In this document: positions 2,185 through 49,893 of the stretch, in pieces
Layout: each line of letters opens with the position of its first letter
Numbering within the stretch: the first letter of the stretch is position 1
DNA from: Cyanidioschyzon merolae
Taxonomy: Eukaryota
Length of the DNA: 64,000 nucleotides
Assembly (NCBI GenBank): GCA_000091205.1
Contig: AP006486.2
Strand: one strand, 5' to 3'
Notes under the pieces: model-generated
The model's input: the letters and a program-made list of their open reading frames with translations, nothing else
Databases searched by the model: none
What the model was told of the DNA's origin: nothing
Position numbers and translations under genes: made by a program

Positions 2185-2714
2185 GTGCAGTGACATGGAC
2201 TCGGTGCCGATGCGCGAACCGCAGCGGATGACAGCAGCGTCGCTCTATGACATGGCATTGTGCTTCGTCTCTGGGTCCAGCGTTGGCGAAGTCAAGTCGG
2301 CGACGATTTCGTCGAGAACGTGACGGATGTTGTGCTTGTGTGCAAGCTTCAGATGTACTGGGCCTCGTGGTTACCAGCAGAACGCAGAGAGCGCTTGTAT
2401 GTTGGCGCTCCACAGCGCCGAGTGGATGAATCCGAAGGCTTTCGGGTGACGCAGCGGCGCCACTGGCGGCCGCCTTGAGCGTCATCGGCAGTAGGTACAC
2501 AACGCGGTGGGTGTCGTTGCAGCGCGCGAGGTTTTCTGATGGTAAACGCAGCACATAGTATGCGCCCTGGAGACTTGCTGGTGACCTGAAGCACCGCGTT
2601 GGCGATGTGGATGATCAAGAGTGGATAGACCATGCTTCAGCCGCGAGCAGCTGGTCCGTGTTTGATCCGCTCTGTATCGTTCAAACTCCATTGTTCTAGA
2701 CCGGTGGATGGCGA

Positions 2715-3713: not shown

Positions 3714-6351
3714 ACCAGCTGCAGCTCACAGAGAAGGCCGTACAGGCCGCTGCGCCAGTGTGTGGAGTACGCGAACAGGCATTTATGTAGGACAGGGGCA
3801 CCACATCGAATAGAAGCCCGCTGAGCATGTTATGCTGGCATACTATGAGCGCGTCCGCTTTAAGCTTGAGTGCTCTATTCATGAAAGCATATTCGCACAA
3901 ACTGTTGCGAAGCCGCGGCAGCCATGTCAGCTACCCTGCGGGTAAGGAGTCGAAAGATCCGTCATCCTGAGCAGCGCAATGAACTTGGAGAATTCGCTGC
4001 GAGTCTCGCTCTCATTGCGAGTTCTCTGTGGAACTCGGTACCTCCTCGATGTGTCGCGTTACCAGCGCGTCATTGACCCCCCATGGACACGCTCAGGAAT
4101 CCTTGCCATCAGTTCCCATTGTTCACGGTCAGCAGCGTATGCATATAATGCCCAGTGGGTGCGCCTCATAAAGCGCTTCGACACTGACCTGCTTATGCTT
4201 TTGGTCAGTGAAGCTGGATGGATACTTTTGGCAGCTGCCCTGTACCGCTTTTTTCGATCACCGACAAGACGCAGCGATGTGTCAAGGTATGCTCAGAGGC
4301 GTTTGCATGAGAATCTGATCCTCCGATCAGGCCGTCTTGTATCCCCTGTAACGAGAATCAGCTGTGCTGCTTCACAGAGGTCTGATCGAAGAATTCCAGG
4401 CGAATATGACCGGTTGGCAGCGCAGTGTCCAGAACTCCTCCGAAGACCTGCTCGGCGACATATGTGAAGACGAAAGCACCGAGGCGTTCATTCGTTGAAT
4501 TAGAAGCTGTACGATCTCGAATGTTTTTCCTGCATTGTTTCGTGTCATTGGTGCGAACAGCTCATCTACGGATCCGGAAGCGGAAAATTTGCATTCGACA
4601 TCATCGAATCAGAGAGAATATACGAGAACAATGTGCAGTTGAGCGCCAGTCCTAAACGTGTACTCCATTACTGCCATTCTATGACGTAACGCAATGTTTT
4701 CCATGAGCAGGACAGAATAATGTTCGAATGAGAAGCCACGAAGAATGGTTCAACGATAATGCGTTGGTATTGAAAGGGCCCGGGCTTTGGCCTTCTGAAC
4801 GCGACTCCATGAATAAATCGCCACTGGCGCCTATGTCGTGGTAAAACGCGCTTGTCTCTTCTCTTCGAAACAGCGCTCGATCGCCCTTCGAATATCTCTA
4901 CACAGGTGCGCAATTCTTCCCCAAAGAAACCTCATAGACAGAGACGAATACCCGTCGCTCCTGTACTTATCGCTCGCGTTTCAGTTCGAAATCGCTGGAG
5001 TGTTGTTCACAGCGTGACGAATTCGTGTAGCAGTGCGCTTTTTTACTCCATCCTTCCGTGTCTCTTCAACACCATTCATATCACTGATACGCCAAAATCA
5101 CATTTTATGGCCTCGTCGTCAGCATTCTTAGAGAATGTATGGAGTGGGACCGATTGACGGGGACACGGTTGTCTAGATACTGTTTGGTTTGGTGAGTTTC
5201 CGGCGCTCTACGTTCAGAGCGGGGATTTCGACGAGACTTGTGGTTCATCCACCAGCGAACCGTAGCATACGTGACTTGGAGAGACGAAAAAGTCTTTTCT
5301 CGCACGCTTGCAGTGACTGCATTCGCGCTTTTCGTGACCGTTCTTCAGTCTACGGGAAATCATTTCACTGACTACCCGCGAGAAAAGCAACCAAGAACAA
5401 AAGTGATCTGCTCGTATATCCAGTCTAAAAAGTACTTTTCTGTGTATAAAGCGGCCTGATTCGCTGGTACGATCATCCGCTCAAGTTTCTGCATGAAGCT
5501 TCCACAACGCAGTTTCGATACATGCATGGATGCTAGCCGCGGATGTGGGCACTGTAGACTCGGACAACTAACTGGCAGAGAGCGATCGAAAATCCTCTTT
5601 AAAGCAAGTGGGTGTATGGTGATGGTGCTTTCGATAAACTGCGCTGCAGGTTCAGCGAGGACGCCACAGGTACCGGTGACCGCTGACGCACCTCTTACCG
5701 AGCGGCAACATCTTGTGCCGCGTGCAGATACTTTGCTGGTGACGCTGGAGATTTCGCTCTGGTTCCTATTGAGTGAACGATACAACGCTTGCTTTTCAAT
5801 CCAAAAAGCAGGTCTATGGGAAATTCCAGCAGGTCTGGTTTTGAACCGTCATCCTAGTCCACTGCAGCATCGAGTTCCGCAATGTAATGGAGTATATCCT
5901 ATGCTTTCGCGTACGCAGATCGTGCCCTAGTCCAGAGACACTGGCCTGCTTCAACGGCCGTCCGTGGTGCGTCACAACCACAGCGGGAATATCGTTGCCG
6001 ACTATGTCCAGAACATAGCGTCCAGGGCTGGCCCGGGCACCCGTGCAAATCTGCTCCATTGCCATGATGCCACGCGCAACAACACTAGTGATGTAGAGCT
6101 CATAAAACGGTAGTGTATCGCCAGCGCATCCCTCTGACACACACACTCTGTGTGTGTGTGTGTTTGTTTGTTTGAAAAAGCTCCCTGTTCGGGCTACCAG
6201 AAACGAAACACGGTATGCTGCAGCCCCTGTGCTCACTGTGCATGGTTTCCTGGTCTCGAAACACGATTGTCTTCACTCGTATCGGGAGGCACGTGCAATG
6301 TGCATCGCAGTGCGTCTAGCCAAAGACCGTTCATGATGTCGCAGACGCTGG

Positions 6352-8061: not shown

Positions 8062-9060
8062 ATATTCTCTCTGAATTAGCGAATAACGGAAGACTACACT
8101 CGTTCACAAATTCCCTAGGAAAATACTTGCCAGTGTACATATATGCGGTGCTCTGGTTGTTCAGGTTCGCCGCACTGAACCGCTTCAGGGCGCTGAGCTA
8201 GGCGGGGATCCATTCCCGCTGCCCCTGGCATACGAGTCGCTATCGTCGACAGTTCCCCAGTGTTTAGGTGTCATGCCTATCTGGCGTACGAAGCGATGTT
8301 CGTGGTAGCTCGCTCCACAGAGCCTCTCGCGACGCTCTGGATGCACGACACTTTGTCGGTTGTCGATCGAGACGTTCAAGCGTCGGTGCAGAGAACGCCT
8401 AGCGCCGTGCGCTACCAAGTCCACGACCCGACGTGTCGTTCATTTCCGTTCCCAAACCGGTGCAGAGGCTTTCTCTTGATTGCACGCTTCCTGGCTCCGG
8501 ATGGCCGAGACCGGGGCGACTCCAGCGCCGTCGTCATGGACGTCTGCCACGGGATGCTCGTGTGACCTCTCTGGAAGCTCCTGTACGGACTGCATGGAGC
8601 GTGCAAGGCATCCCGCGCTGCTCGGCCCGGTGCGTAGCGTGTCGGGTGAGCACCCGGCGCCTGCATGTTGCTTCTTTGTATGCCACGTGGCGTCCACAGC
8701 GCTCGACTTTCGAAGATTCCGGGCACAGGTCGAGCTGAGCAGCTCCGTCTGGTTTGCTGGTCAGGCGTTCGGCTCCGTGCTTTTGGTTGCTCCGTGTGCG
8801 GCGACAGCCGTGAAGCGCCTTACCCGCGGATAAACGCTGAAACTAGAATCTTTTTCCTGGTCTACCTGGATCGGTTGAGAAAGAGTCTCGTTGCGCACCG
8901 CTGGGCGAGGCCTCACCAAGTGCATCCAGACTGATGGTTTGTCGCTCTGCATGCTCCCGCAGACCGTTCTTCATTTCCTGGGAGCAAACGAGAAACATGG
9001 AATGAGCGCCACAGACGCTGTTTGCGAATCTGTTCCAATGCATCGTCGTTTCTTGCCAAG
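8062..9060. repeat. ~1.0 kb dispersed repeat R1, copy B (direct repeat of 2715-3713)
   Basis: See copy A. The identical 79-aa minus ORF (8185-8424) and near-identical plus ORFs are present. Confidence 0.8.
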
Positions 9061-10136
9061 ACCAACCGCTAAAAGAGCGGACGATATCCACTGGCAAGCA
9101 ATTCGATACCAGTGTCGTTCGGCCTTCATGATAACCGTTGGAAAGGAGGATACGATTTCCGTATCTTCCAACGTTTGCCTTCTATGCCGAAGTGCCCGTG
9201 TGCCGGACGAGTATGCTGGGCCAGTGCTGCATGCTGCCCCCAGGGGTGGGTGCAGTTGCGCCACCTGAACAACTCGCCCGCAATGCAGTTGATTCTCGGA
9301 TTCAGGGCAGTTCGGGTGTGTCTCGAAGTCGCCCAGGTTGCAGTTATCTCCTAGTACACCGCATCGCGCTGCCGCATGCAGTAGGTCTGTCTGCGCAGTT
9401 TGCAGGCGCCCAGAATGATGTAGAGTGCCGACCCCGTGTCGGATGAACGACGCCTCGAGCCGACATGCCCATTGGTATGGCAACGCTGCTCTGTCTTTGT
9501 ATTGCATCCGCACTTGCGGTATAAGCGCTACAACGGGTGCAGCACTGCATGCACTCGGCGCGAGAGATACCATAACAAACGACCAGTGTATCCTAAAGAA
9601 AGTATGGGCCATGGAACCTGAAGGTACAGTGCGTCATGATGAATACGTTCCCGAATGCCTATATCCCTCATTTGATCTTGGGTATACGTTCAATGTAAAC
9701 CTTTAGTCGAACAAAAAATGGAAACGCTGCATAGGTGAATGAATAACGCAACATCCGCTCAAACCGTGCTACTGGCCGGCCAGTCTCCTCCGGAACGCTC
9801 ACATCATTCTATCAAGAGAATAACGATTGTGAACACACACTCGCCATCGACGGGCTTCCAGTCTGGCTCAGCATGGTCCCGTTACCATAACCCAATCGTT
9901 GCGTCTGTGCTAGTTTTCAACTTTCACTTGTTCAGCGCGGTAGTTTTCTCAAAAAAGTGCGCCGTTTCCGCTACGCCGAGCAGTTGCGTCACTCTCAGAG
10001 AAAAACGGTCGCAAGTGTAGGCGAGGCGTTTGTAACTGGACCACGTGTCCGGGGAGTGTCTGGCACCTGGTCTGTGGGGCGACTCCCTCAAAAGCTACAG
10101 CGGAGTCAGCATCAAGACTGGTTGCGTGTCTCGAGG

Positions 10137-18607: not shown

Positions 18608-21097
18608 CTTGAGGGCGTCGAATCCCCAATCACATCATGCAGTTAGGTATTTGGCTGTTTTGTGCGTCGGTATTCTCGGTTCACGCATCATGGAGCATGC
18701 GGGTGACTGGAGGCTCGTGATACATTCGCATGTGTGCGCATGAAGACGTGTGGGCATTCGGACTTGCAGGATCGACGCAGACTCGCGTGCGTTGGTGGTA
18801 GCGGCTTTCATGGGATGCAGCATCATCGTATGGTGCCAAGCGAGCCATCTTCGTTTACATGAAGCGATCGTTGCATGGATGGATCGACAGGTGTCTGATA
18901 TTGGAAGCGGGCGACGAGCGGGCGCTCAATGTCCCGCAGGACTCCCGCTCGATGTCGATCTGTAGCTGGTGGATATCTCGCAGCCGCTAGCGTCCTGGGA
19001 GCTACAGACAGCGAGTATGGAGCTCGTGATCGGCTCGAGGGCAGGCGCGCCTGCCTCCGGTCGTGTCTAGCGGTCGCTGGGCGTATTCCATTCAAGTTCA
19101 GCGGAAACAGTGCCTCGGGGGTTGTTCTCCAAAGCTCTCTGAGTAAAAAAATCATCCATGGTCGTGCGTTCTTGATCGAATGGAATGGTGTTTGCACTGA
19201 TTCGTGATCTATGAAAGGCGTGTCCAGAAAACAGGACACGTCACAGGGCTGTGAACGGTTCCCACGTGAAAATACACAAGTTTCCGGGTATTGGAAAGTG
19301 CTGCGCAGACAGTCACCGTGATTCGTGAACGTCTCCAGAGAAGCATCTCGTTCGTGTGTCCGGGGCGAGAAGCTGCTTGGGCGCGCGACAGCATTTACGC
19401 TGACGCATGCGTGGCCAGAAGCGTCGATGTTCTTGGCTGAAATGCTCGGCACGAGTCGGGCTCAAGTCTGGCTCCCTCGATGCCAGGTCGAACGTTATGC
19501 GCAGAACGGGAAAATCTGGAACACCTGGACCAGCACGCCACGTTTGCCTTTCTTGAGGGTATTCAACGAAGGCGTGCATCCTGTAACTTAGAGAATGCCT
19601 GACGGCTTTCTTTACGATGCCATTGCTAGCTTGCGAATATCTGATCGAACTTGTACAAGTAAGGCATTCCATCGTCGGCAAATGGATGACCCATCGTTTG
19701 CGGCGTCCGCATACTCCATATCGTTCGCTCAGAACGGAACCAGTATAAATCTATTCACAGGATTGTGTGCTCGTCCATCGGAGCCAATCCATTGCTTTTC
19801 TAAGAACTACCACGGAATAAGCCATATGATGTGAAGTTTCCATATAGTAGAGACGACCAGTGATGCAGATACGAATGGACAAGTTAAGAAACACGCTAGT
19901 AGTCGCACTGGTCGCACGTTGAGCAACACACGATCGATTCCGTACTGAAACGCGAACAGTTTGGGCACGACAGACGGGTATTCATCTCGCTCGATGAGAT
20001 TCTATTCCGCAGAAATCGTACATCTGCGTGTGGATACTCAACGAGCGGCAATGCAATGTTTGCAAAGAAGACACAGGCGAGCTTCGCGACTCTACCAGGC
20101 CAAGCGGCGATGTCGACGGGTGTTCGCATACAAACCTTCAAACAAGAGGAGCGTTTCGCACTCGATGCGTCACCTAAGCAGTCTTCGTGCATTCGCCTTC
20201 CCACATTCTTCCGTCCTGCTCTGAGATAACGTCGCTTTCCATCAATCTACACGGTAACGGAGATCGTAGCTGAGACTGTTGGTAAGCGAAACTTGATGCC
20301 AGCCTATGCTCAGTGGTTTCATCCATCCGGGCGCGTCTTCTCTATCGTCAAACGCCATTTTTATGTTCGACGATCAATAGACGAGTCATTCGAATCTGGG
20401 ACCCCAAACTTCTTCGACAAGTCGTTCTCTAGCTCCACCAGCCCGCAACTGCGCAGTTGCTTCTCTGCTCGTGCGTGCTTGGGGGTGAAAGGCCAGCTCT
20501 GGTCCACGGGCGTGCTCCCGATGGAGGAAATGACGAAAAAATGCGAGGAGCTGTAGATATACACCCAGAAGAGGCGAGTCTCGGTGGCAAAGTCCACCCA
20601 GTGCGCACGGGCCGTGGCAAAAACGAACGGATATACCGTATACCGACCGCGTTCCTGCCAAACCGCCAAGTAAACGAGAAGAAGAAGAAACCTCCGCATC
20701 ATGAAGAGAAAGATCCTCCTAAAGACAGTACGAGCATTGAGAGAGGGCAAAAAGTGTGAGGCCAGAGGGATTCGTCAAATACCTCTGTCGAGGACGCTCT
20801 ACGAAAATCCATCGACGGGGAACGTTTCCCGGAAATGTGATACAGCAAGGCACCAGTGATCGTAGAGTCTTGTCCTGGAGGAATGCTCACGCAGCGCCTC
20901 TCGACTTGAAGCACCTGGTAATGCCATTGTCCATGCGCGTTCTGAACGCCGGGCTTCTAGCTGCCTGCGCTCCTCTGGATTTTTTCAATCAAACCGTTGT
21001 GCAATTTCTGATGCTGGGGATAGATATTGTGAGACGGACTGAGACGCTCAGGGCTCGATATGATCCCGAGTTGGACGTGGCAGACGCCACGGGACAA

Positions 21098-21991
21098 ACC
21101 AGCGAATAGTAGGTCGGCACCAGGACCCGTGCCAATGCCCCGAACCCTGTCCTGGACAGAGGCGATGCTGCATACGCTTCATTCAGAGAGTACATGCGGG
21201 TCCAGATTTTTCGACCAGACGATCTTTGCTACAAGGACCGGAGAGCATGCTGGCGTCCTCAACAACCGATTCCGTTGCTCCATATCACGAGGCGGTCACT
21301 CGCCAACCTCTTCATTGAGATGAAGAACAACAGCACCGATGCGTCGCGTCGTTTGCTCGAGACCTCTGACGCGGCACGTTTCGGAGAGCGCAACAGCTTC
21401 ACGTTTGTCCCTTTGATGGACGGGTACAACGCGTGCAGGGATCGGTGCTGCACGATGCCCATTGATGGCTTCGGAGCGAGATTCACACATCTCGAGCGCA
21501 AACTGGCGCTGAAGCGGGCATCCAGGGAGAGCGTAAAGCAGCGACACATCCACGATGTGGTGTCCGGAAGCATGACCGAGCGTCAGCCTGCCACGAAATC
21601 GAAAGCGAGTAACTTGCCGAGCTGGGACTCTACCAGAAACCATGTGCACAAGTCCTTTTTTCTGCGCAGAGACTTGAACGCCTCAGTGAACGCCAGAAAC
21701 TATTTTGTGCTTCCGGATTGATCATCGAGTTTGCATTTTTGGCGGTCATCATGTCATTCACCAGGGTGGTACTTGGATGAAACGCCGAACCCCTTCGATG
21801 AACTCATCGGTCGCCACGAGCGACAGACTTCCATCCCGGCCTGGAACGAGGTACGCGTACATGATGGAACGGCACGGCGAACGCTGGAAATCCAGCACAC
21901 CCGGATCTCCGTCTCTGGACACTGGAAAAGGCCCCGCATGCCAATGGGTGCACTTTCATGGCGCTCCACGATTCACCATTACCGAGTACGT
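21098..21991 (+). mobile_element. ~0.9 kb repeat element E2, copy 1 (TnpB-like C-terminal fragment ORF plus ~270 nt 3' non-coding tail)
   Basis: ~98% identical to 32744-33621. The 175-aa ORFs differ at 4 residues. The copy starts at aaccagcgaatagtagg (stop codon at the left edge) and ends at ...ccattaccgag. Flanks are unrelated. Confidence 0.6.
21194..21721 (+). CDS. ORF of element E2 resembling the TnpB/Fanzor C-terminal region (RuvC-II-like, zinc-ribbon-like, RuvC-III-like); probably non-autonomous or degenerate
   Basis: LANLFIEMKNN is a candidate RuvC-II Glu. SFTFVPLMDGYNACRDRCC matches the V..VDpxYTSqxCsxCG pattern. LRRDLNASVNARNYF matches hRDxNAAxNI. It aligns to the same segment of the 38598 ORF (FVTIPVDEFRTSYT / SRDFNAAINV). 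Motif-level only. Confidence 0.3.
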   Translation: MRVQIFRPDDLCYKDRRACWRPQQPIPLLHITRRSLANLFIEMKNNSTDASRRLLETSDAARFGERNSFTFVPLMDGYNACRDRCCTMPIDGFGARFTHLERKLALKRASRESVKQRHIHDVVSGSMTERQPATKSKASNLPSWDSTRNHVHKSFFLRRDLNASVNARNYFVLPD

Positions 21992-25523: not shown

Positions 25524-25624
25524 CCCAGTGAGCCACGCTCTCCCCTGCACCGCACACCAACAACGAACGCCTCAAAAGACAAAAGTTGCTGCAGGCAGTG
25601 TACAGTAGTGCGGAGAAACCCGCC

Positions 25625-26381
25625 CTAGACAACTCGTCGCCAACTGACTTGCAGACGCCTCCTGGTCTTTTCGGACCGGCCACCTACAACTGATTCCATC
25701 TTTTTCTCATATAATTCAACTTTTAGAAGTTGTCCCACAAAGTTCGCTCGTGTCGACGCTGGAGGTCTCGTCTCCAGCATCGCACTTTTCCTTATATGGA
25801 TTGCTGCGTTACAGCCTCGGTTCATAAACTCCATTCGTTTATTGCCGCTGGTGGAAGTCACCATTTTAAGGAGTCCTTGAAGTCGTGCCTTCCGTTCCAT
25901 TTCATTTGCTGTCACCTCACCGTACTTTTCTATATCTTCTAGGATTTGCTGGCTCTTCCCCGTCTCGGCCGTCTGAATTGTACGCCCCAGTTCATCCCAT
26001 AATATTTTAAAATCAAGGCACTGCTTTATGCATTTAGCTGAGGACATTCCCGGAGGAGATAGCACTTGCGCAGAAAGGACGACAGGTGCCCCGGTAGTGT
26101 TGTATGCTGAGCGCTTCAGCGATTCGCTCCATGCATCGATCGATACGTTTCACGATACAAAACACTCCCTCAATGGGGTAGACCAACGGAAACCACTAAA
26201 GAATGAAAACCAGCTCTATCCAGACAGAATCGGCAAGATCTCGAACGCAACAGGAATGATGAAATGCCAGTTTGTCCCGTAGAAGGACGTCGTTAGACGT
26301 CAGGGAAAAGGGACCCTTAATTCGACAACGTGGTTGAACCTGTTGTACGAGGCTGCTCTTCAAGTTCGATCTTATACACAA
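25625..26381 (-). pseudogene. Decayed TnpB/Fanzor-like relic related to the 38598-39752 ORF (frameshifted, internal stop, inactive RuvC-III)
   Basis: Minus reading ILEDIEKYGEVTANEMERKARLQGLLKMVTSTSGNKRMEFMNRGCNAAIHI...TRPPASTRANFVGQLLKVELYEKKMESVVGG aligns colinearly with RTPEDIAKYGPLTEEQMERMAKVRGLLALGSTINGKKRMEFVSRDFNAAINV...RRPPELKRENFTGQSLKVELYERKLEAVVAG. SRD has become NRG. Upstream, ..AYNTTGAPVVLSAQ (matching KGTTPAPTIRT) follows an in-frame TGA at ~26150, and an earlier segment is in another frame. Confidence 0.5.
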
Positions 26382-32600: not shown

Positions 32601-32743
32601 GCAACAAGGCGATCGCCAAGCCTCAAAGTCAAGAGGACGGATCCAATATCCCGAACGGGAACCAGATGAAGTTCCTCAATGGTTCATGGACCCGGTATAA
32701 TCGAGCGCCGGGCATGACGGACGATCGGTGAGAAACCAGCGAA

Positions 32744-33621
32744 TAGTAGGTCGGCACCAGGACCCGTGCCAATGCCCCGAACCCTGTCCTGGACAGAGGC
32801 GATGCTGCATACGCTTCATTCAGAGAGTACATGCGGGTCCAGATTTTTCGACCAGACGATCTTTGCTACAAGGACCGGAGAGCATGCTGGCGTCCTCAAC
32901 AACCGATTCCGTTGCTCCATGTCACGAGGCGGTCACTCGCCAACCTCTTCATTGAGATGAAGAACAACAGCACCGATGCGTCGCGTCGTATGCTCGAGAC
33001 CTCTGACGCGGCACGTTTTGGAGAGCGCAACAGCTTCACGTTTGTCCCTTTGATGGACGGGTACAACGCGTGCAGGGATCGGTGCTGCACGATGCCCATT
33101 GATGCCTTCGGAGCGAGATTCACACATCTCGAGCGCAAACTGGCGCTGAAGCGGGCATCCAGGGAGAGCGTAAAGCAGCGACACATCCACGATGTGGTGT
33201 CCGGAAGCATGACCGAGCGTCAGCCTGCCACGAAATCGAAAGCGAGTAACTTGCCGAGCTGGGACTCTACCAGAAACCATGTGCACAAGTCCGTTTTTCT
33301 TCGCAGAGACTTGAACGCCTCAGTGAACGCCAGAAACTATTTTGTGCTTCCGGATTGATCATCGAGTTTGCATTTTTGGCGGTCATCATGTCATTCACCA
33401 GGGTGGTACTTGGATGAAACGCCGAACCCCTTCGATGAACTCATCGGTCGCCACGAGCGACAGACTTCCATCCCGGCCTGGAACGAGGTACGCGTACATG
33501 ATGGAACGGCACGGCGAACGCTGGACACCCAGCACACCCGGATCTCCGTCTCAGGACACTGGAAAAGGCCCCGCATGCCAATGGGTGCACTTTCATGGCG
33601 CTCCACGATTCACCATTACCG
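32744..33621 (+). mobile_element. ~0.9 kb repeat element E2, copy 2
   Basis: Near-identical to 21098-21991 over the whole length, with the same ORF set (32831-33358, 33342-33641). Confidence 0.6.
32831..33358 (+). CDS. ORF of element E2 copy 2 (TnpB-like C-terminal fragment; see 21194-21721)
   Basis: 175 aa, 4 substitutions relative to copy 1. The YNACRDRCC and RRDLNASVNARNYF motifs are retained. Confidence 0.3.
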   Translation: MRVQIFRPDDLCYKDRRACWRPQQPIPLLHVTRRSLANLFIEMKNNSTDASRRMLETSDAARFGERNSFTFVPLMDGYNACRDRCCTMPIDAFGARFTHLERKLALKRASRESVKQRHIHDVVSGSMTERQPATKSKASNLPSWDSTRNHVHKSVFLRRDLNASVNARNYFVLPD

Positions 33622-34074
33622 AGGATGCCTTCCATCGTTGAATGCGTCCGCCTCGTGCAATTCATCGCGTTCCATCAGGAGGTGACGACCTTCTCGCACA
33701 CATTTCAGCCGGATTCCATTCCACGACAATGCGCATGAGCTGTCGATGCGTCGCTTGATCATTCGTTGCAGGTCATCGCGCTCGCCAAACTGGAGTTGTA
33801 GATGATAACCTGTCTAGCGCATGGTGTGTTTACTCGGCAGATCACATGAAAAACTTTAACGCTTCAGGTAAAGTGCTCTATCATCTATCATATACAATTT
33901 GCAGGTCGCTTTGCGGGCCAGCAACGACACCTCAAGCCAGCCAGACTTGTCCGAGCACCGGCAATCTCCATCTCTGTCAACCGTTCATCCGATAATCGCA
34001 TATGCGGTCGCTGGTTCATGCGGCCTGTTTCGAAGCGCAGCACACTGCGCCATGCTGGTGTTCTGCATCCGCAC

Positions 34075-34616: not shown

Positions 34617-36707
34617 TTAGGCAGCGCTCATGTCACCGCTGGCCAACTGCTTCTCAACGAGTTGGTAGTAGAATCCTGATGGGCCCAGAGCCATGAGCTC
34701 CGAGTGGTTGCCTTGTTCAACCACGACACCATCCTGCATTACGAGAATGAGGTCTGCACGCGCCACTGTGGACAAGCGGTGGGCAATCACAACGCTGGTA
34801 ACGCCGTCAGAGGCCATCATCCGATCCAGCGCCTCCTGAACGAGAGCCTCGCTCTCTGCATCCAGAGCGCTGGTGCTTTCATCCAAGCAGAGTAGCGTTG
34901 GATGCTTCAGAATCGCTCGAGCGATAGCGATGCGTTGTTTCTGGCCGCCGCTTAACGCCAGACCTCGCTCTCCGACCTCGGTATCCAGTCCATCGGGTAA
35001 TGCCATAACAAAAGAGTACGCATTGGCTTCGCGCAAGGCCTGAATGACCTCCTCATCTGTAGCATCTCGTTTGCCATAGAGAATATTATCGCGGATGGTT
35101 CCAGAAAATAGAACCGGCTCCTGCGAAACAAGCCCAATCTGACTACGCAAGGCGTGAAAGTCGTAGTTCCAGGCGGGCGTACCGTCGAAGAGCAAGAGAC
35201 CGCCGCCTTGCGGTTCGATATCGTAGAAGCGCATCAGGAGCTGAATAATGGTCGACTTGCCGGCACCGCTTCCGCCGACAATAGCGACCGTCTTTCCATT
35301 AGGGATTGTCAGGGAAATCCCTCGTAACACTTCCACGTTCATTCGTGTCGGGTACCGGAAGTGGACGTTCTCGAAGACAATGCCTTGCTTCAGTACCAGA
35401 GGCTGCGTGACGACTTCAGCGCCGGGGTCAGGACGTCGGTACTGTGGTACACGGTCGATCATTGCAAAGAGCTCGCCACCAGCACCGAGTCCGCGGGTGA
35501 CGTCAGGCCAGACCTGAGCCGCCTGACCGACTCCCATGAAGCCGAGTATGGCGCTGAAGAATGCAGTTAGCAAATTACCCAGATTCAGAGAGCCGCGAGC
35601 GATCAGTTGCCCGCCCCACCACAGGGCAAGCGCATAGACACAGAAAATCACCAACATAGACAGTCCAAAGAAGAGACCGTCTGAGATGTAGCGTCGCCTC
35701 CCCAGACGGTACAAGGGATCAAGCTTGCTGCCGTATCGTTGCGTTTCGTAGCGCTCTGCCTCGAAGGCTTTGGTCGTGCGAATATTCGAGAACACCTCCG
35801 CTGCAACCGATCCAGCACTCGCATACGCTTCAGAGCTTCTTTTCGTATTGCCACTCATCTCGATCATCTGGGCGGCACCAGCGAGCACAACCAACGGTGA
35901 GAGCGCGATCAAGACGCCAGTGAGGGCAGGCGCGAATATAAACGCCACGATTATACCGACAACGCATTGGGCGAGATTGAATAAAACCGCACCGAGTTTC
36001 GAGAACGAGTACTGGATGACCTGAACGTCGTTATTCAGCTTTCCACCGAGCTCACCAGCTTTGCGGCGGTCGAAATAAGTCACGTCTTGCTCGACCAGGT
36101 TGCTGAAAGCCGCGACTCGCAGGTCCCGAGCTAGACGTTCGCTTGCGATCCCAAACAAAGCCGTTCTTGACCCGGCTACGATGAACTCGAAGACACCGAT
36201 ACCGACGAATCCAACGGAATACTTCCATGTTTCGCCTTCGATCTGGCTTTTGCTCTTCGTGAAAACTTGAAACATTCGACCGAATACAATCGCGAACGCT
36301 GGTAGCGTTGCTCCTTCCAAAATAGAAGCAATGAATCCGATAACAATCATAGTTGCAGACGAGCTCCAGGCAAGCGCGAAGATTCGCCGTGCAGTCACGC
36401 CCGTGGTGTAAGCGCTCTCCGGACCAGAGGCCTTTGCCGCCTTTTTAGGGTCGCCTGCCTCGGGATCTTCACCAGCAGCCGACGGGCGTGCCCAAAACCG
36501 CCACCAACGTCGGTTAGGTGTGTCCTTCTCCTTCAATTTCAAACTTGGAAAAGATTCTTGAAACGCGGTCGCCTCCGAACTGACCGCAGTGTCCGGCGAC
36601 ACCGGGTCCGTCTCGTAAATTGAGCTGCTGAGGGTTCGCTCGCGGTGGTTTTCACCAACGCTGCTGTAGTTCGCTGTTTCAAAGCTTTGCGCTGCGTGAG
36701 CGTTCAT
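34617..36707 (-). CDS. ABC transporter, ABCB-type half transporter (TMD then NBD)
   Basis: ATG at 36707 (minus). Six TM helices are followed by Walker A VAIVGGSGAGKSTIIQLL, the ABC signature LSGGQKQRIAIARAIL, Walker B LLCLDESTSALD and the H-loop VVIAHRLST. Confidence 0.88.
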   Translation of the reverse strand: MNAHAAQSFETANYSSVGENHRERTLSSSIYETDPVSPDTAVSSEATAFQESFPSLKLKEKDTPNRRWWRFWARPSAAGEDPEAGDPKKAAKASGPESAYTTGVTARRIFALAWSSSATMIVIGFIASILEGATLPAFAIVFGRMFQVFTKSKSQIEGETWKYSVGFVGIGVFEFIVAGSRTALFGIASERLARDLRVAAFSNLVEQDVTYFDRRKAGELGGKLNNDVQVIQYSFSKLGAVLFNLAQCVVGIIVAFIFAPALTGVLIALSPLVVLAGAAQMIEMSGNTKRSSEAYASAGSVAAEVFSNIRTTKAFEAERYETQRYGSKLDPLYRLGRRRYISDGLFFGLSMLVIFCVYALALWWGGQLIARGSLNLGNLLTAFFSAILGFMGVGQAAQVWPDVTRGLGAGGELFAMIDRVPQYRRPDPGAEVVTQPLVLKQGIVFENVHFRYPTRMNVEVLRGISLTIPNGKTVAIVGGSGAGKSTIIQLLMRFYDIEPQGGGLLLFDGTPAWNYDFHALRSQIGLVSQEPVLFSGTIRDNILYGKRDATDEEVIQALREANAYSFVMALPDGLDTEVGERGLALSGGQKQRIAIARAILKHPTLLCLDESTSALDAESEALVQEALDRMMASDGVTSVVIAHRLSTVARADLILVMQDGVVVEQGNHSELMALGPSGFYYQLVEKQLASGDMSAA

Positions 36708-37600
36708 AGTACATATGACGGAAAAACGTATCTTCTTCCGTTACGACACGCAAAATAAGAAACGTCGTCGTCACTAGAACACAAACGACTGTTCACACCA
36801 GACGTAACGCTTTGGCAACCCGAAGGTAACGCGAACGATGCGACGCTCGGTACTGTGCTCTGTACCCAGCATCAAATCTGCGGCAGATTCCGCATCGCCA
36901 CAGAGAGGCGTTTCTGTGGACACCGTCGGTTGACCCGCGTGTGTTCGACGCGAGCATCCGCGGTGGTGGTGGTGGTGGTGGCAGCGGCAGCGGCGGCGGT
37001 GCTGGTGATCAGACAGCGCCCCCCGCGGCTCAAAATTTCGACGCTGCGCGCGAGGCGACCGTTCCTTCCGGCGCTGTGTGGATTCCCTGCCCGATGACAG
37101 CACGTTTCCGTTGACCACGGATGCCGGCATTCGGGATGGATATTCGCTTTCGGGAAAGCGTCTACTAGGAAGCACCTACCTTCAAGTTCCATTCCCCGTA
37201 CTTCGTCTCGTATGCACTGGTCGTTTCGTATGCTCTGTCGTGTGCCGAGTGCCTGCCTCGAGCACTCGCCGTAGCGCTTATACCGCTGAAGCAGGTGCTG
37301 CACGGAGACAGAACGGCGTTGCCATACCGCAGAGGGCGTCGGCTCGCGGAATCCTACATGTGACACGCAATCACGGCGAATTCTCATTCCGGGAGCCTGC
37401 AAGATGCGCAGTCAGAAGCGCTGCCTGCGATAGCGCGAGGCGATAGACGAAGAGTCCACTGGGACCTGGGCGACGCCCAGATGCAGCATCCTGCTCCTAC
37501 TCCCGAGCTGAACGAAATTGTGAACGAGTTGCTCAGATCTGACTAAAGTACCTGCCACTGGGAGAAGCATGAAGCACGAGCCTGGGATCCTGTCTTAATT

Positions 37601-39757
37601 GATATATCAAGTATCTATCAGAGCGAAAGTTGCGGGTGGGCATGAGAAACCGTGCGTCGAGTCGTACTCCGTGAGTATCATAAAGGCTTCCTCAGGAATA
37701 ATGCTTTTGGTGAAGGCGATGTATCGCGACTTGACGCAGATCGAAACAGTCGAGGTTTCGGAGGAGGAATTTTTCGACAAGAGCTTTCATCGTCACCTGA
37801 TGCTTGGCACAGGGGAAGCGCGGAGCAAAAAATAAGTGAGTGCACGCCCTCCACGAACACCACGCCGAATACCGCTTCAGCGGTGCTCCATACAGGGGTG
37901 ACTCGCGAATTTACGAATACGCGGCGATGGAGTACCGCACGAACCTGAAGAATCACGTGGTCGTGAAACTCGAACGTTTCATGATACGCTCCATCTTTGC
38001 GTAGTATCCGGGCCTCTCTCGCAAAGGAATATGCGCGATCATCGACAGCATCACGAACGATTGTCAGCATGAACAGGAGATCGAATTCGTCGACAAGAAG
38101 GCGTCATATAGGAGAAGGAATGAGGTTTCTGTAATCCGCGCCACTATTGAAGAGAACCGTGCGGTCTTGGGGCCGGCGAATCCAGCAGAAAAGGTATCAG
38201 ATATGAAATAAACATGGAAAAAGATGTTATCCTTTAATTCTGCTCGATTTCGTATTTTTGGACCGAGAATCCGAACGCAAGGCGGAGATGAAGCTGAGTG
38301 AGGAAAAAATGAAGAGTGGGAGAGACGGAAGGCTGTCCGAATGGGGAAGCGCTTCAACGTCGTTCCAATGTGCAACATCAAGTCACATTTTGTGACTGTC
38401 GACTCCAGAATCCTTCATGACTTCATGAAAGAGATCAGTCCCGAGCTCAATGTTAGCAGGGAGGGGTTCTCCGGCGAAAACCGGGTGACGTTCTGCAAGA
38501 GAATCTTCGATTTCAAACGTCTCAATGTGAGCAAACAAGGGGTATTACTGGGATGATCGAAACCGATGTAGTGGCCATGTGTGTACACTAGCGGCGCTTG
38601 AAGAAAGATCGTCCAGTTCCGTCTGTGACGAAAGATGAAGATAAGAGGAAGGCGGATCCTGCGACACAGAAAGTTCAGGATAACTTTTTTGTCGTTGGCG
38701 CAGACCCTGGGAATACGAATATCATAACCATCGCTGTACCCAAACGTGCGGAAGATGGTACTGACGGCAACTTACGTCAGAAACACATACGTCTTTTGAG
38801 GTTCTCGAGAGCGAGATACTATCGAGAATCCGGTATAATGAATGCAAGGAAGAAAATTGATACGTGGAATGCAGGAATGAAGGATCACCTCGAAGTTTTG
38901 GGCGAGGTGACGAGTCGAGGAGCGGACTTTGAAGCTTTTCGGAAATTCATGGAAATACGCGTTGCTCATTGGGATGCCTTGTGGGAGGAGTGTACCAAGC
39001 CCCGGTGGGCTCGTTTGCGTATGAATCTGCACTGTGGGAAGCAGCGGGCGTTTGCCAACTTTTTCAATCAGTTGAGCGCTCTGAAGAGGAATGAAAGTCA
39101 GAGGCTCGTAGTAGCGTACGAAGCAGGGCGCTGGAAGACCCAAAAGGGGACCACGCCAGCCCCAACGATAAGAACGTACAAAGAGTGCGCAAGGCGTTTT
39201 GTTACGATACCTGTAGATGAGTTCCGAACGTCCTATACACATCACGAACTGGGGTGTACACTTCAGAGGGTCGAGATGGAAAGGTGCCAGCGGACCCCTG
39301 AGGATATCGCAAAGTATGGACCGCTGACGGAAGAGCAAATGGAAAGGATGGCGAAAGTTCGTGGACTGCTTGCATTAGGAAGCACCATCAATGGCAAGAA
39401 ACGTATGGAGTTTGTGAGCCGGGACTTTAACGCCGCGATCAATGTAACGATATGCGCAGCGATGGAAAGGAGACCTCCAGAGCTGAAACGAGAGAACTTT
39501 ACTGGACAATCACTCAAAGTCGAACTATATGAGAGAAAGTTGGAGGCAGTAGTCGCTGGCCCGCCGAGCAAGGCTGGGAGGCATCTGCACATCCGTTGGA
39601 GACTTCTTGTCCTGGGCGAGTTTCTCGCCACCACTGTACACTGCCGGCAGCAACGTTTTTTCTTTTGGAAGTTGTGTGTCGTCGTTCTGGCACTGGAATG
39701 GAGTTCATTCACGACGCCTTCGGACGAGGCGTACGTTCGTTATCCCACTTGAATATC
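37601..39757 (+). mobile_element. Putative Fanzor/TnpB-bearing transposon-like insertion (~2.16 kb), AT-rich 5' half
   Basis: There is a sharp GC-to-AT shift at ~37595. The left end GATATATCAAGT (37601-37612) and right end ACTTGAATATC (39747-39757, reverse complement GATATTCAAGT) form an imperfect 11/12 inverted repeat with one indel. The right inverted repeat overlaps the ORF stop (TGA 39750-39752). GC-rich host sequence resumes after 39757. Confidence 0.4.
38598..39752 (+). CDS. TnpB/Fanzor-like RuvC nuclease (OMEGA family); RuvC D-E-D triad intact; N-terminal WED/REC region not in this ORF (possibly intron-split or degraded upstream)
   Basis: RuvC-I FFVVGADPGNTNIITIAV (Asp codon 38703-38705). 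TnpB-like helical linker ARLRMNLHCGKQRAFANFFNQLSAL. RuvC-II LVVAYEAGRW (Glu 39120-39122). YKECARRFVTIPVDEFRTSYT with a degenerate zinc ribbon (HHELGC…RC). RuvC-III SRDFNAAINV (Asp 39423-39425). The track start is TTG, with no in-frame ATG before residue 79. Confidence 0.65.
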   Translation: MKKDRPVPSVTKDEDKRKADPATQKVQDNFFVVGADPGNTNIITIAVPKRAEDGTDGNLRQKHIRLLRFSRARYYRESGIMNARKKIDTWNAGMKDHLEVLGEVTSRGADFEAFRKFMEIRVAHWDALWEECTKPRWARLRMNLHCGKQRAFANFFNQLSALKRNESQRLVVAYEAGRWKTQKGTTPAPTIRTYKECARRFVTIPVDEFRTSYTHHELGCTLQRVEMERCQRTPEDIAKYGPLTEEQMERMAKVRGLLALGSTINGKKRMEFVSRDFNAAINVTICAAMERRPPELKRENFTGQSLKVELYERKLEAVVAGPPSKAGRHLHIRWRLLVLGEFLATTVHCRQQRFFFWKLCVVVLALEWSSFTTPSDEAYVRYPT

Positions 39758-39780
39758 CAGTGGGTGCGCACAAGGCGCTG
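39480..39780 (+). ncRNA. Candidate omega-RNA (Fanzor guide RNA) scaffold overlapping the ORF 3' tail and right end; the guide would derive from flank 3' of 39757
   Basis: The ~85-codon post-RuvC-III tail is not protein-like but is conserved at the nucleotide level with the relic copy. One block, tttctcgccaccactgtacactgccggcagcaacgttttttcttttgg, versus tttctccgcactactgtacactgcctgcagcaacttttgtcttttga, is ~88% identical over 47 nt. A local stem cctcag/ctgagg lies at 39845-39890. Placement follows TnpB/Fanzor biology. Confidence 0.3.
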
Positions 39781-42700
39781 AGCTGCTCCATTTTTTGTGT
39801 GCAGCGTGTTCAGATGATGCATGCTGCAGTTTTTCGATATTCATGCCTCAGGGTAACGCTGCGCAGCATGTCGACATCCTGTCTGAGGGCACGAAAAAGT
39901 CGGCAGCGTCGTTCGACGTGTTCAAAAGCTCGTGCCGCATCAAGTTACGGGCACCACACGATTCATAAATCCGCATCATTTCGTTGCCGTCGACGAAACC
40001 GCATGCGACATCCCCATCGTATTGCTCCGGGGATATGCAACCGGGCGTTTCCGTCTCTTCTGTTTCCATGGAAAAGGATCTCACACTCGGATTTCCCACA
40101 TTGCAGCAATCGCTTCCCATGGAGCATGCGTCACTGCTCTGCACGTTAGCAGCATCGACGGATCGAAGGTTATTGATGCGATCTCCGGTCTGGAGTTCGC
40201 TTCTGGATTTTGTCTCATCAGGATTGACATTGACTTTTACAAATCCCTTATTGAATGCGGTAGTGCGCGAATGCCCGATAACGTACTCGCCGAGGCAATC
40301 GCTCAGAAGAAGCAGGTCGTTTCAGGGTAAACCATTGGGTAAGGGAACCGAAGGCATCTACAGGGACCTCGCAAAAGCGTAAACGGTGCGATGAAACCAG
40401 TCTGAGCGCGCCACGGGCTGGTACTCGTAGCAAGTTGTATGGTCGGCGTACCGGACCACCTGACTGCATCCACGTGTCACCGCTGAGGAGGGCGCTCCAA
40501 AGCTGTCCACAAAGAGTACGAGAATGGCACGCAAGCCGTGTGTCGGAACTTTCGTCTGTGCAAGCAATGCGTCGTCAACGGACGTAAGCAGCGTGATCAT
40601 GAATTGACCGCTGTCATCATGATCATCATCATCCTTCGAATGCAGATCACGGAGCTCATGTAAAGGCTCAGACTGGCGTATTCGAAGCCCGAGCGAACCG
40701 AGTGAAACCGAAAGCAGTCACGGGAGAGATGTCCGCAAAGGCTGGTGCGAATTACAATTGGAAGAGACCCAAACTCCATCGTTTATGCCCGTATTCGAGG
40801 ACCTATTCCGTGTTATGCTGACATATGTCTAGTCGCTTTGTTGAACGTGAGACTAGTTAAGGGGTTCCAAGCGGTCTCAGCGCATGCATGCCCACAGGAG
40901 CGCGGCTCCACCTGCCTCGCTATTCCTGGAGAAAGCGCTGTCAAGCGAGTACGCTGACGGCTACGCGATCAGACAAGATGCCTCATACGCCGTCTCCATG
41001 AGGCGCTTCGCAGGATCCCCACGGGTGTCGGCTGCGTATGCAACTAGCGTTCAAATGCTTCACCGTTGTCTTTGAGGAATCAAGCAGTTCTACCGAGGTA
41101 AACGTCTTCGTGTATCTAAGTTCGTACCGCAAAATAGCCGCACAAATCCAGGTGTGGTAGCGACAGCTCCGCAATCATAGACGATAAAAAATGAGCATTG
41201 CCTTTTCTAATGAGGCATTTATCGACTCTGCCGCCAAGAGTCACTCGTGATCATGGACGCACGCTCACGAAGCCTTGCACATCGCATGTGAAGAACTCGT
41301 GCTGCGTCCCTTGGGCAAGGAAGCTGCAGGCTTTGCGTTCGAAAAGCCTCAGATTTGGCTATTGTTCAGTTGCCCCCTATCATAAAAACGCATTTCCATG
41401 GTGAACAAGAATATCCCGCCGCACATTGGAATCGATTTTTGTCGATTCCCTGACTTGGCGTTCGCACCGACTTCTCAGCCACAGTTGCCACTCCAGGCAT
41501 CGTCGCACTTGGTTACGGGATTTCTATGGACGACACCCATCGACGGACACCATGCCGAGTCCTATTCTCGATACACGAACCGCTACACCACCGGAACATG
41601 GTCATGCGTTCGTGAGCATGCAAGTGCAGGCATTGTGACCCGCGCATATGCGCCACGTTCCCAGTCAAGACGATTCGTTAGCGTCTATACATCTGCGAAT
41701 TTCGAACCACCACATATATTCCCCATAAAGAGCCGACTCGATCGCAGCGAGCACGCCTCGCAATGATCTCGCATTCACCAGCTTCGGCGTTTTGGCAGGA
41801 TGCTCCTGGTGTCGTGTTCGGCAGGGAGCGTAGATCAGGACAGGCGGTCTCATTTAGAGAAACGTACATGAATCTCTACGCTTTGCCAGGTTGGAATTGG
41901 ATCCGTACGGTTTCGGATGCAGCAAGAGTCGCAGCACAACCAGCCGATTCATGATGGTCAATGATCGGCAGTTTCCAGCCTTGGTCGCGTCGCTGATGCG
42001 CATTGGCAAGCGTTGTGTACGCCCCCGGTTGAAAAAGGTGCATCCGTAGACCGCGAAGATGCTGACACGGAAACGTAAACAAGGCCAGTAGGCATCAACT
42101 ATTGCTACTGGAATCATGGCACTTGAGAGAGCAGCGCATACCCGCTTCTGTGACTTGGTGCTTTGGGCGGAACCGCACTGTACGCACTTTCTGGGCTATT
42201 CGGGCCAATGAATATCGAAACAGAACATAAGATCCAGAAGAGCTCGTCGTGAAGGTGCTCAGTTCCAACCAGGTCAAGAGTCGCGGGAGCCGATGAATCG
42301 CATCAGAACTTGAGTCAGCAAGAACGTAGCGCAACTGCTCCAGCGTCGTCGCTAACCTTGTTTCACAGACTCCGTTTGCGACGTTGTGACAGCTTCGTAT
42401 CACGACTCCATACGTTGAGCAAAGAGCGTGCAGGTCTCGTGCTTGCGCTAGCGGAACGCACGAACTCGGCGATGACTCTTGCGGACGCCAGTCGCGAGTA
42501 TACAGTTGTCTTCCATCGCTCAGCACTGTCGTTCCTCCAGCGATGGAAACAAAAAACTCTCCTCAAACAAGAGCATCTGAAAGCTATCAACCTGGTTCCA
42601 AAAAAGTTCCACCAGAGAACCGTTTCATTGTATACCTTGTCTAAAACGTTCGACAACTCGCCCGTCAAGCGGCTCAGAGGCGAGCAACTCGTCTACGACA

Positions 42701-49287: not shown

Positions 49288-49295
49288 TTAGGGAT

Positions 49296-49685
49296 ACAGG
49301 AATGGATCTATAGAATACATATCCAATGGAAAGGATACTGGAGGGATACAGGAATAGATCTATAGAATGCAGATCCAATGGGAAGGATACAGGAGGGATA
49401 TCGGAATGGATCTATAGAATACAGATCCACTGGGAAGGATACTGGAGGAATACAGGAATGGATCTATAGAATGCAGATCCAATGGAAAGGATACTGGAGG
49501 GATATCGGAATGGATCTATAGAATACAGATCCACTGGGAAGGATACTGGAGGGATATCGGAATGGATCTATAGAATACAGATCCACTGGGAAGGATACTG
49601 GAGGGATATCGGAATGGATCTATAGAATACAGATCCACTGGGAAGGATACTGGAGGGATATCGGAATGGATCTATAGAATGGGGG
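49296..49685. repeat. Minisatellite, ~7.5 copies of a 52-bp unit (ggatctatagaatacagatccactgggaaggatactggagggatatcggaat)
   Basis: The gatc landmarks recur at 49305, 49357, 49409, 49461, 49514, 49565, 49617 and 49669 (period 51-53), with minor variants. Confidence 0.85.
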
Positions 49686-49893
49686 AGGATATAAGAGGCA
49701 TATCGGAAGAATAAGAGGTCTAGAAGGAATGGGAGAATAGAAGGGATAGGAAGCGTGCCCTCTAGATTTTCTGAGATGATCGCGTGACGCTCATGCGTGT
49801 AAGCGCGCAGGTGCCGTAAACGTGCGCATACGTGTCCCAGTGTTCCAGGGCCGGTGCGCTGCGTCATGTATTGCGTTTGCGCGGAGAAGCAGT

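Follow-up and report, generated by a model that had tools for sequence, protein, structure and literature searches.

A probable fossil CMe-1A copy with a broken Fanzor1 gene, lacking terminal inverted repeats, between CmABCB1 and SPT5 of Cyanidioschyzon merolae

The stretch of DNA analysed here (the window, 64,000 nucleotides) contains an intergenic copy of a dispersed repeat, located between the genes for CmABCB1 and SPT5. The neighbouring ORF on the minus strand (34617-36707) is identical to CmABCB1 of Cyanidioschyzon merolae 10D (BAM79212.1), and this identity marks the window as DNA of C. merolae 10D, a red alga. The repeat consists of a 5' module, a core with the remains of a Fanzor1 gene, and a junction between the two; the RuvC half of the gene is still an open frame of 384 aa (Table 1). 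Reading of the sequence alone had recognised here a transposable-element insertion with a RuvC gene of the Fanzor/TnpB type, and this is borne out by paralogous copies and by matches to Fanzor1 at the level of both sequence profile and fold.

Table 1. Coordinates of the features of the repeat copy and of the two short motifs at its proposed edges
Feature	Position in window	Strand	Basis or description
TE-N2_CMe-like 5' module ("module A") of CMe-1A	37070-37588	+	Paralog identity, multiple alignments
Internal deletion junction	37583-37600	.	Located at ~37588/37589, adjoins short AGCCTG microhomology
Fanzor1-bearing core ("module B") of CMe-1A	37589-39680	+	5'-truncated by deletion, 3' end intact
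Degenerate N-terminal half of Fanzor1 coding sequence	37601-38597	+	tblastn, three-frame translations
Left proposed repeat arm, GATATATCAAGT	37601-37612	+	Internal coding sequence (K-H-I-K-D-P), 12 nt past the ~37588 junction
384-aa open frame, RuvC half of Fanzor1	38598-39752	+	ORF translation, homologues
Right proposed repeat arm, ACTTGAATATC	39747-39757	+	Unique flanking DNA, ~65-70 nt past the family 3' end

The boundaries of the element are defined by its other copies. Homology within the family extends from ~37070 to ~39680, as seen in nine independent paralogs, which share 70-84% pairwise identity, and in a second copy within the window, a 3' fragment at 25553-25995 in which homology likewise ends at the equivalent of ~39680. 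The left end is uncertain by ±15 bp; the right end lies within 39678-39690, and ten copies break off after ...GGAAGTTGTGTG, immediately before TCGTCG. The length of the family is ~3.2 kb (2667-5871 in locus L004). The sequence-only reading had placed the ends of a ~2.16-kb insertion at 37601 and 39757, but family homology continues for ~530 bp to the left of the former and stops ~70 bp short of the right-hand motif. The true ends of the composite, of the core, and of the 5' module are devoid of terminal inverted repeats: in 12 of 13 tests there, the highest score of a local inverted repeat fell among the values obtained by shuffling. Neither is there a target-site duplication at the true ends, the longest word common to both flanks being the 5-nt CGTTC, located off the junctions. 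Comparison with seven orthologous metagenome or strain loci at 99% identity revealed no empty site: the element, together with its internal deletion, is found in all seven, so that the insertion is deduced from paralogy and not seen as a polymorphism.

The two short motifs that had been proposed as terminal inverted repeats are present as quoted, and are reverse complements of each other save for a 1-nt indel. Neither of them lies at an end of the family. The left arm, GATATATCAAGT, is conserved coding sequence in the paralogs, where its equivalent is AACATATCAAAG/GG (K-H-I-K-D), and the right arm, ACTTGAATATC, is missing from all of them. When the sequence was shuffled, an inverted match of equal quality turned up in 0.6% of cases with search zones of ±30 nt, in 2.2% with ±50 nt and in 8% with ±100 nt; it also occurs in 13 of 308 (4%) pairs of real zones 2.1 kb apart within the window. 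Such a match is only moderately unlikely, somewhat rarer than expected by chance (2-8%), and the pair is a chance match.

Base composition had been thought to turn AT-rich between the same two edges. GC content of the 37601-39757 interval is indeed lower than in the window as a whole (49.8% vs. 55.1%, the 1.2th percentile of 2157-bp windows), but a dip of about 5 points does not make it AT-rich. In a two-boundary likelihood scan of 35000-42500, a GC-rich patch (36881-37510) came out as the strongest compositional feature. When the left edge is kept constant, the likelihood is essentially flat for all right edges from 38900 to 41700, and 39757 is no better than 39678 (6.53 vs. 6.51), so the sharp return to host composition to the right of 39757 is not seen. 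Within the element, the 5' module has 57.7% GC and the core 49.7%, the cores of the paralogs being at 48-49%.

The core is 75-82% identical to nine paralogs. Its first kilobase, previously regarded as a 5' region of the transposon, is in fact the N-terminal half of the Fanzor gene, corresponding to residues ~62-395 of a reconstructed protein of ~730 aa that was used as the tblastn query. In-frame stops (at least four) and changes of frame (at least three) interrupt this half; the tblastn alignment passes from frame 3 to frame 1 and back to frame 3, and contains several stop symbols as well as a scrambled patch (~38205-38315). The open frame that follows has as its nominal start a TTG codon immediately 3' of an in-frame TAG. 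Its stop codon lies inside the right-hand motif, as had been noted; the gene, however, does not run into the end of the transposon, and the last ~72 nt (~24 codons) of the frame are read-through from the true end into flanking DNA, up to the first chance stop. This frame has 204 homologues, the best of them 70-83% identical; none covers more than 90% of it, indicating that none extends past ~39680, with the sole exception of the orthologous P0003. Among the best 120 of the 204 homologues, none comes from NCBI or UniRef, and the exact 384-aa ORF is absent from the protein collection searched, in which the neighbouring C. merolae gene is present. At the orthologous site in 99%-identical strains the frame is 410, 436, 507 or 602 aa long.

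The 384-aa ORF comes from a genuine Fanzor1 protein, of which it is the RuvC half. A profile of 84 sequences, comprising family members and distant relatives (alignment A3, the deeper one, built via profile search of 1.84 billion representatives), matched PpFz1 (E = 1.9e-20), SpuFz1 (3.7e-13) and GtFz1 (7e-7) in PDB, and nothing else there. A narrow profile of 13 sequences gave only a spurious match to angiogenin in the same database, and AlphaFold with that 13-sequence alignment produced an unusable model (pLDDT 33). The AlphaFold model of P0038 reached pLDDT 83.3 and pTM 0.79; the fold test pertains to this intact paralog, whose identity to the truncated window ORF is 74% (alignment A1). Foldseek placed SpuFz, PpFz and GtFz on top (E from 5e-14 to 3e-10, TM ~0.6); Fanzor1 structures occupy the first seven ranks, and Cas12 and TnpB come after them. 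The three catalytic RuvC residues are found in the window ORF within GADPGNTN, VDEFRTSY and SRDFNAAIN, and across the 84 sequences D314 and E486 never vary, while D555 hardly does. The segment from the [TS][TS] to the RD motif, where the motif of Bao & Jurka (Pfam PF07282) has a C4 zinc ribbon, reads TSYTHHELGC-x10-C...VRGLLAL and has no canonical CxxC...CxxC, with H, H, C and C as possible ligands. Pfam searches yielded no match for the window ORF or the long paralogs; in particular, PF07282 does not match the window ORF or its close paralogs, and matches two distant relatives weakly (E ~0.002, under the curated cut-off). A guide RNA was sought in the last 200 nt of ten copies and could not be shown: the RNAalifold consensus is weak (-16.8 kcal/mol, with a covariation penalty), and no Rfam family matched the 36500-40500 interval.

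The 5' module is a separable unit of ~660 bp, found at the 5' side of copies. In the window copy it is 68-74% identical to the 5' modules of L004, L007, L010, L012, L013, L015 and L016, and lacks roughly its last 130 bp; elsewhere in the window, at 9100-9700 on the minus strand, it occurs alone, with no Fanzor sequence alongside. Relative to the Fanzor core it may be direct, inverted (in three loci), or common to two diverging cores, and it is absent in L029 and represented by at most a short stub in L003. Its coding potential is ambiguous: the consensus has long open frames on both strands and only weak 3-periodicity, the sole Pfam match, DUF1780, is non-significant (E = 0.12, under the cut-off), and RNAalifold analysis of nine copies found no covariation support. 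We considered whether this module could be a degenerate serine-recombinase gene of the IS607 type, and found nothing in support.

At the junction between the modules, window position 37587 aligns with position 3171 of L012, and 37589 with position 3750, which amounts to a deletion of ~580 bp; in the multiple alignment, a ~570-bp gap is seen in the window copy alone. Compared to all other copies, the window copy lacks the 3' tail of module A, the non-coding stretch upstream of the gene, and the beginning of the Fanzor ORF itself (ATG and ~60 N-terminal codons).

With high confidence, then, we regard the interval as part of a fossil CMe-1A copy, ~37070-39680, a composite with a single deletion and a broken Fanzor1 gene. 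The alternative from the sequence-only reading, a complete 2.16-kb cut-and-paste transposon spanning 37601-39757, with 11-12-nt terminal inverted repeats, 1 kb of non-coding DNA on its 5' side, and Fanzor as a cargo gene extending into the right end, has in its favour the reality of both motifs, matched as well in only 0.6-8% of shuffles, the lower GC of the interval, and the precedent of other Fanzor1 elements, such as SPu-1, which do have terminal inverted repeats. It is nevertheless refuted, and hardly credible, because family homology in other copies has its limits at positions different from 37601 and 39757; furthermore, one arm is coding in the paralogs and the other is found in none, what was taken for a 5' region is coding sequence with disruptions, the flanks showed no target-site duplication, and the empty site that would have helped this model is not found among the seven sampled strains, all of which carry the same sequence. 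It is also very unlikely that the RuvC-only ORF is a domesticated or otherwise still functional truncated gene, expressed and kept for a host function. The length of the ORF and its preserved catalytic D, E and D would suit such a role, and some CMe-1A copies have kept intact ORFs despite the age of the family (Bao & Jurka 2013, PMC3627910); against it stand the TTG start after an in-frame stop, the loss of the upstream region, of the ATG and of the entire N-terminal half, the read-through nature of the last codons, and the frameshifts that change ORF length, from the 384 aa of the window to the four other values, among strains that are 99% identical, which indicates drift and not constraint.

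The history of the junction is a separate matter. Two independent insertions, of a 3'-truncated TE-N2_CMe (37070-37588) and of a 5'-truncated Fanzor core (37589-39680), could have come to abut, and independently truncated neighbours would give the same appearance of the junction; the modules are separable, as the solo 5' module in the window attests, and depending on the paralog the 5' module sits beside the core in either orientation or is absent. We nonetheless consider this unlikely, since in L004, L007, L012 and L027 the two modules are ordered and oriented likewise and the sequence across their junction is of full length, so that one deletion across that junction explains the window copy, and the AGCCTG microhomology also speaks against it. 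Two insertions would in any case alter the history of the copy and not the verdict on the boundaries proposed earlier. One deletion is the most parsimonious history of the junction. A broader proposal, improbable in our estimate, is that the TE-N2_CMe-like module and the Fanzor1 core are two mobile units that repeatedly end up adjacent by site-specific or RNA-guided insertion: the pattern of their arrangements could mean that one inserts site-specifically beside the end of the other, conceivably with the Fanzor guide RNA choosing the site. If true, this old red-algal family would be a natural eukaryotic example of targeted, possibly RNA-guided insertion, to which the window copy could be only a dead witness.

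Under the preferred reading, a fossil copy with one deletion, the 5' module and the Fanzor1 core would together have made up one CMe-1A copy, and one deletion of ~580 bp would have taken away the final part of the 5' module together with the region preceding the gene and the gene's own beginning, start codon and ~60 codons; the rest of the N-terminal half would then have decayed through stops and frameshifts, leaving only the RuvC half open. As judged from its sequence, the window copy is a pseudogene that cannot make a functional RNA-guided nuclease, is most likely unable to move, and would amount to neutral intergenic DNA. The appropriate annotation for the 384-aa ORF is a pseudogene fragment, and for the element a span of ~37070-39680. 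Where paralogous copies exist, the limits of an element should not be drawn from short inverted matches that the eye has picked out at a change in composition.

Among proteins of known structure, the closest relatives of this family are SpuFz1 (8GKH), PpFz1 (9CF0) and GtFz1 (9CER), with which it shares the full-length fold, profile-level sequence homology, and the conserved D/E/D of RuvC. Sequence identity to them is only 13-16%, and in this clade the canonical CxxC...CxxC zinc ribbon is replaced by T-H-H-E-L-G-C...C and RGLLAL. SPu-1, the element that encodes SpuFz1, ends in terminal inverted repeats of 33 bp and is flanked by TA duplications (PMC3627910), whereas the C. merolae family has neither. 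In this respect the latter resembles bacterial TnpB-only elements of the IS200/IS605 or IS607 type (e.g., IS1341-like), which also have a lone TnpB-family ORF reaching the right end; several C. merolae copies additionally share with them a short palindrome (CGTTCGActtTCGAACG) near the 3' end, though this hairpin is not in all copies and shows no covariation. The host here is eukaryotic, the protein is about twice the size of TnpB, and no TnpA was found. In its active days the family probably resembled other Fanzor1/TnpB elements in behaviour: it may once have been a passenger RNA-guided nuclease that took its guide RNA from the 3' end of the element, mobilised in trans by a putative transposase making no use of terminal inverted repeats.

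The window copy matches the CMe-1A/TE-N2_CMe family as described by Bao & Jurka (2013, PMC3627910), an assignment made by comparing the host organism, the size and divergence of the copies, their architecture and the type of protein with the published description. According to these authors, CMe-1A is present in ~150 copies in the C. merolae genome, each ~3 kb long and ~80% identical to the consensus, without terminal inverted repeats and with the target-site duplication left undetermined, and its 5' 635 bp are common to a separate element, TE-N2_CMe. The family studied here is from the same organism, of about the same length (~3 kb), with copies ~75-84% identical to each other; its Fanzor1 ORF reaches the 3' end of the element, its ~650-bp 5' module also occurs as a separate repeat, and it too has neither terminal inverted repeats nor recognisable target-site duplication. 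The 2013 publication of the family thus already covered the absence of terminal inverted repeats and the composite 5' module, and the significance of the window copy, a broken relic, is small. It differs from the published element in its ~580-bp internal deletion and broken ORF; also, the published arrangement of the modules is 5'-direct, whereas in the sampled paralogs the TE-N2-like module may face either way with respect to the Fanzor core, or is absent, and the occurrence of both orientations is the one, only mildly new, observation.

The gene of the window copy, an element at ~37070-39680, is a real Fanzor1 of which only a fragment, a 384-aa ORF (38598-39752), is open. Direct searches were uninformative: a Pfam search of this ORF and of the long paralogs gave no placement, a narrow profile run against PDB did not place the protein, and an AlphaFold model built from 13 near-identical sequences reached pLDDT 33. 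The ORF has 204 homologues, the best ones 70-83% identical; the best 120 of the 204 all come from metagenome assemblies, with no NCBI or UniRef entry among them. The search was therefore widened: a profile run against 1.84 billion representative proteins retrieved 1427 relatives, many of them 600-700 aa long. When a profile of 84 sequences was compared with PDB, it matched only three solved Fanzor1 proteins, Parasitella PpFz1 (E 1.9e-20), Spizellomyces SpuFz1 (E 3.7e-13) and Guillardia GtFz1 (E 7e-7). The same alignment gave an AlphaFold model of the long paralog P0038 with pLDDT 83.3 and pTM 0.79, for which Foldseek puts Fanzor1 structures in the first seven places (E 5e-14 to 3e-10, TM ~0.6, ~600 columns), ahead of Cas12 and TnpB structures. 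The RuvC residues D, E and D, conserved throughout the 84-sequence alignment, are kept in the window ORF (GADPGNTN, VDEFRTSY, SRDFNAAIN); the canonical C4 zinc ribbon is absent from its clade. The sequence-only reading is supported in part: the copy is indeed a transposable element, and it carries a Fanzor gene.

The extent of this element is set by nine independent paralogous loci on metagenome contigs (L003, L004, L007, L012, L013, L027, L028, L029 and L030), which belong to the same species population, since the same samples give the orthologous locus at 99% identity. Family length is ~3.2 kb (L004 2667-5871), and copies are 70-84% identical in pairwise comparisons. The first ~500 bp of the family align with window 37092-37587 at 70-74% identity, placing the left end at ~37070. 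The next ~580 bp, retained by every other copy compared, are missing from the window copy, and alignment with the paralogs restarts at 37589-37604; the lost stretch comprises the tail of the 5' module (the TE-N2_CMe-like part), non-coding sequence upstream of the gene, the start codon (ATG, opening MKKLVDDPGG...) and ~60 codons. At the other end, alignability of ten copies, among them a 3' fragment elsewhere in the window, ceases at the junction of ...GGAAGTTGTGTG and TCGTCG, window 39678-39690. The boundaries 37601 and 39757, and the size of ~2.16 kb, proposed from the window alone are thus wrong.

Terminal inverted repeats had been proposed at those two edges, and the arms are indeed present as quoted, GATATATCAAGT at 37601-37612 and ACTTGAATATC at 39747-39757, reverse complements save for a 1-nt indel. 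Of shuffled sequences, 0.6%, 2.2% and 8% contain a match of equal quality when the zones searched are ±30, ±50 and ±100 nt wide, as do 13 of the 308 real pairs of zones spaced 2.1 kb within the window; such a match is moderately unusual, and, the edges having been picked after the match was seen, it is not strong evidence. The left arm is internal coding sequence, reading AACATATCAAAG/GG in paralogs (ORF codons K-H-I-K-D) and lying 12 nt from the deletion junction; the right arm, together with the final ~72 nt of the ORF, is unique flanking DNA, because family homology stops earlier, so that the gene does not end at the right end of the transposon but reads through it. At the real ends, no significant terminal inverted repeat was found for the composite, the Fanzor core alone or the 5' module alone, and no target-site duplication is visible. 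The claim about composition holds only in part. The interval 37601-39757 has 49.8% GC (window 55.1%, left 2 kb 55.9%, right 2 kb 52.6%), within the lowest 1.2% of the window's 2157-bp windows; the lower GC stands, but a dip of only ~5 points is not a switch to AT-rich sequence. In a two-boundary likelihood scan of 35000-42500 the strongest feature is a GC-rich patch at 36881-37510, and the apparently sharp fall at ~37590 is due to the (GGT)n/(GGC)n tract and the GC-rich 5' module. With the left edge held fixed, the right-edge likelihood is flat from ~38900 to 41700, 39757 being no better than 39678, which leaves no sharp right edge.

What had been taken for a ~1-kb 5' region before the RuvC gene is coding sequence for that protein's N-terminal half: compared with the long paralogs P0032, P0034 and P0038 (~590 aa), window 37840-38553 encodes it with in-frame stops and frame changes. 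Alignment of a reconstructed ~730-aa protein maps homology to frame 3 at 37656-37829, frame 1 at 37804-38553 and frame 3 from 38511; the frame-1 stretch is interrupted by three stop codons and is frameshifted over a patch at ~38205-38315, and a TAG directly precedes the TTG with which the 384-aa frame begins. Homologue coverage ends by ~residue 350, the sole exception being the orthologous P0003. The window copy has lost the upstream region, the ATG and N-terminal residues, is broken by multiple stops and frameshifts, and cannot encode a Fanzor nuclease. All seven orthologous assemblies, 98.8-99.3% identical to the window across 7-9 kb, carry both element and deletion; a check for an empty site found none among them, so that the insertion is old and fixed, and so is the deletion. 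Among strains the ORF here measures 384, 410, 436, 507 or 602 aa, owing to frameshift polymorphisms, which is the pattern that a neutrally decaying pseudogene should show. Some orthologous ORFs extend ~400 nt into flanking DNA.

The copy sits in an intergenic stretch between the SPT5 gene and CmABCB1; ORF 34617-36707(-) equals at every residue this ABC transporter of C. merolae 10D (BAM79212.1 / XP_005535498.1; 513-kb record). Counting the 3' fragment, four Fanzor-related relics lie in a ~20-kb span inside the window. Two of the others form an 894-bp duplicate whose 175-aa ORF looks like a second Fanzor-like family, divergent and dead; Bao & Jurka (PMC3627910) list a single Fanzor family for C. 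merolae.

Coordinates of element copies, modules and repeats (L-numbers, loci on metagenome contigs)
Feature	Location	Remark
Orthologous loci with longer ORFs	L017 2216-3739; L020 866-2098; L023 4565-6373; L001 5601-6911	99% identical; ORFs of 410, 436, 507 or 602 aa; all match window 38333-40149
Inverted 5' modules	L013 2749-3415; L028 1980-2603; L030 ~2130-2830	
Direct 5' module	L004 2667-3340	for comparison
Solo 5' module	window 9100-9700(-)	68-71% identical, TE-N2_CMe-like; no adjoining Fanzor sequence
3' fragment of another CMe-1A copy	window 25553-25995(-)	73% identical to 39246-39667; same family 3' terminus
25-aa (75-bp) tandem repeat, ...KDEEKKEAxPATQEVEDNDLVV...	window 38620-38700; L029 1720-2170; P0002	inside Fanzor ORF, immediately before first RuvC Asp; one copy in window, up to ~six elsewhere
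(GGT)n/(GGC)n simple-repeat tract	window 36950-37000	directly left of element
894-bp duplicate	window 21093-21986; 32730-33623	98.9% identical
175-aa ORF in each 894-bp copy	window 21194-21721; 32831-33358	Fanzor1 superfamily, as window ORF (profile comparison, 95% probability); ~29% identity only to CMe-1A; catalytic Glu replaced (PIDGFG / PIDAFG)
1003-bp duplicate	window 2715-3717; 8062-9064	99.2% identical, 5.3 kb apart
Tandem array of ~52-bp units	window 49290-49708	

By analogy with established Fanzor and TnpB nucleases (Saito et al. 2023, PMC10432273), active family members would be expected to encode an RNA-guided nuclease and to produce its guide RNA from sequence at the element's 3' end; to move, they would probably need a transposase acting in trans. 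No covariation in favour of a conserved RNA structure was found in the last 200 nt of ten copies. Several copies carry a subterminal palindrome, CGTTCGActtTCGAACG; this feature, and the lack of both terminal inverted repeats and target-site duplications, recall elements that work without DDE transposases.

The window copy is a fossil member of an already described family, assigned to CMe-1A via the published description. C. merolae has ~150 copies of this Fanzor1 element, ~3 kb long and ~80% identical to their consensus, without terminal inverted repeats, with target-site duplication undeterminable and classification unknown; the 635 bp at their 5' end share 95% identity with TE-N2_CMe, an element in its own right with 70 copies (Bao & Jurka, Mobile DNA 2013, PMC3627910). 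All these features are reproduced here, solo 5' module included, the likeness being one of description rather than of consensus alignment. Relative to the core, the Fanzor1-bearing part, the 5' module is direct in L004, L007, L012, L027 and the window, whereas L013, L028 and L030 have it inverted. L029 lacks it, L003 has no more than a short stub, and in L030 one module is shared by two diverging Fanzor cores. Because orientation varies and the module may be absent or shared, module and core are separable units, which suggests that the published composite is really two such units tending to sit together, a small addition to the published picture of CMe-1A.
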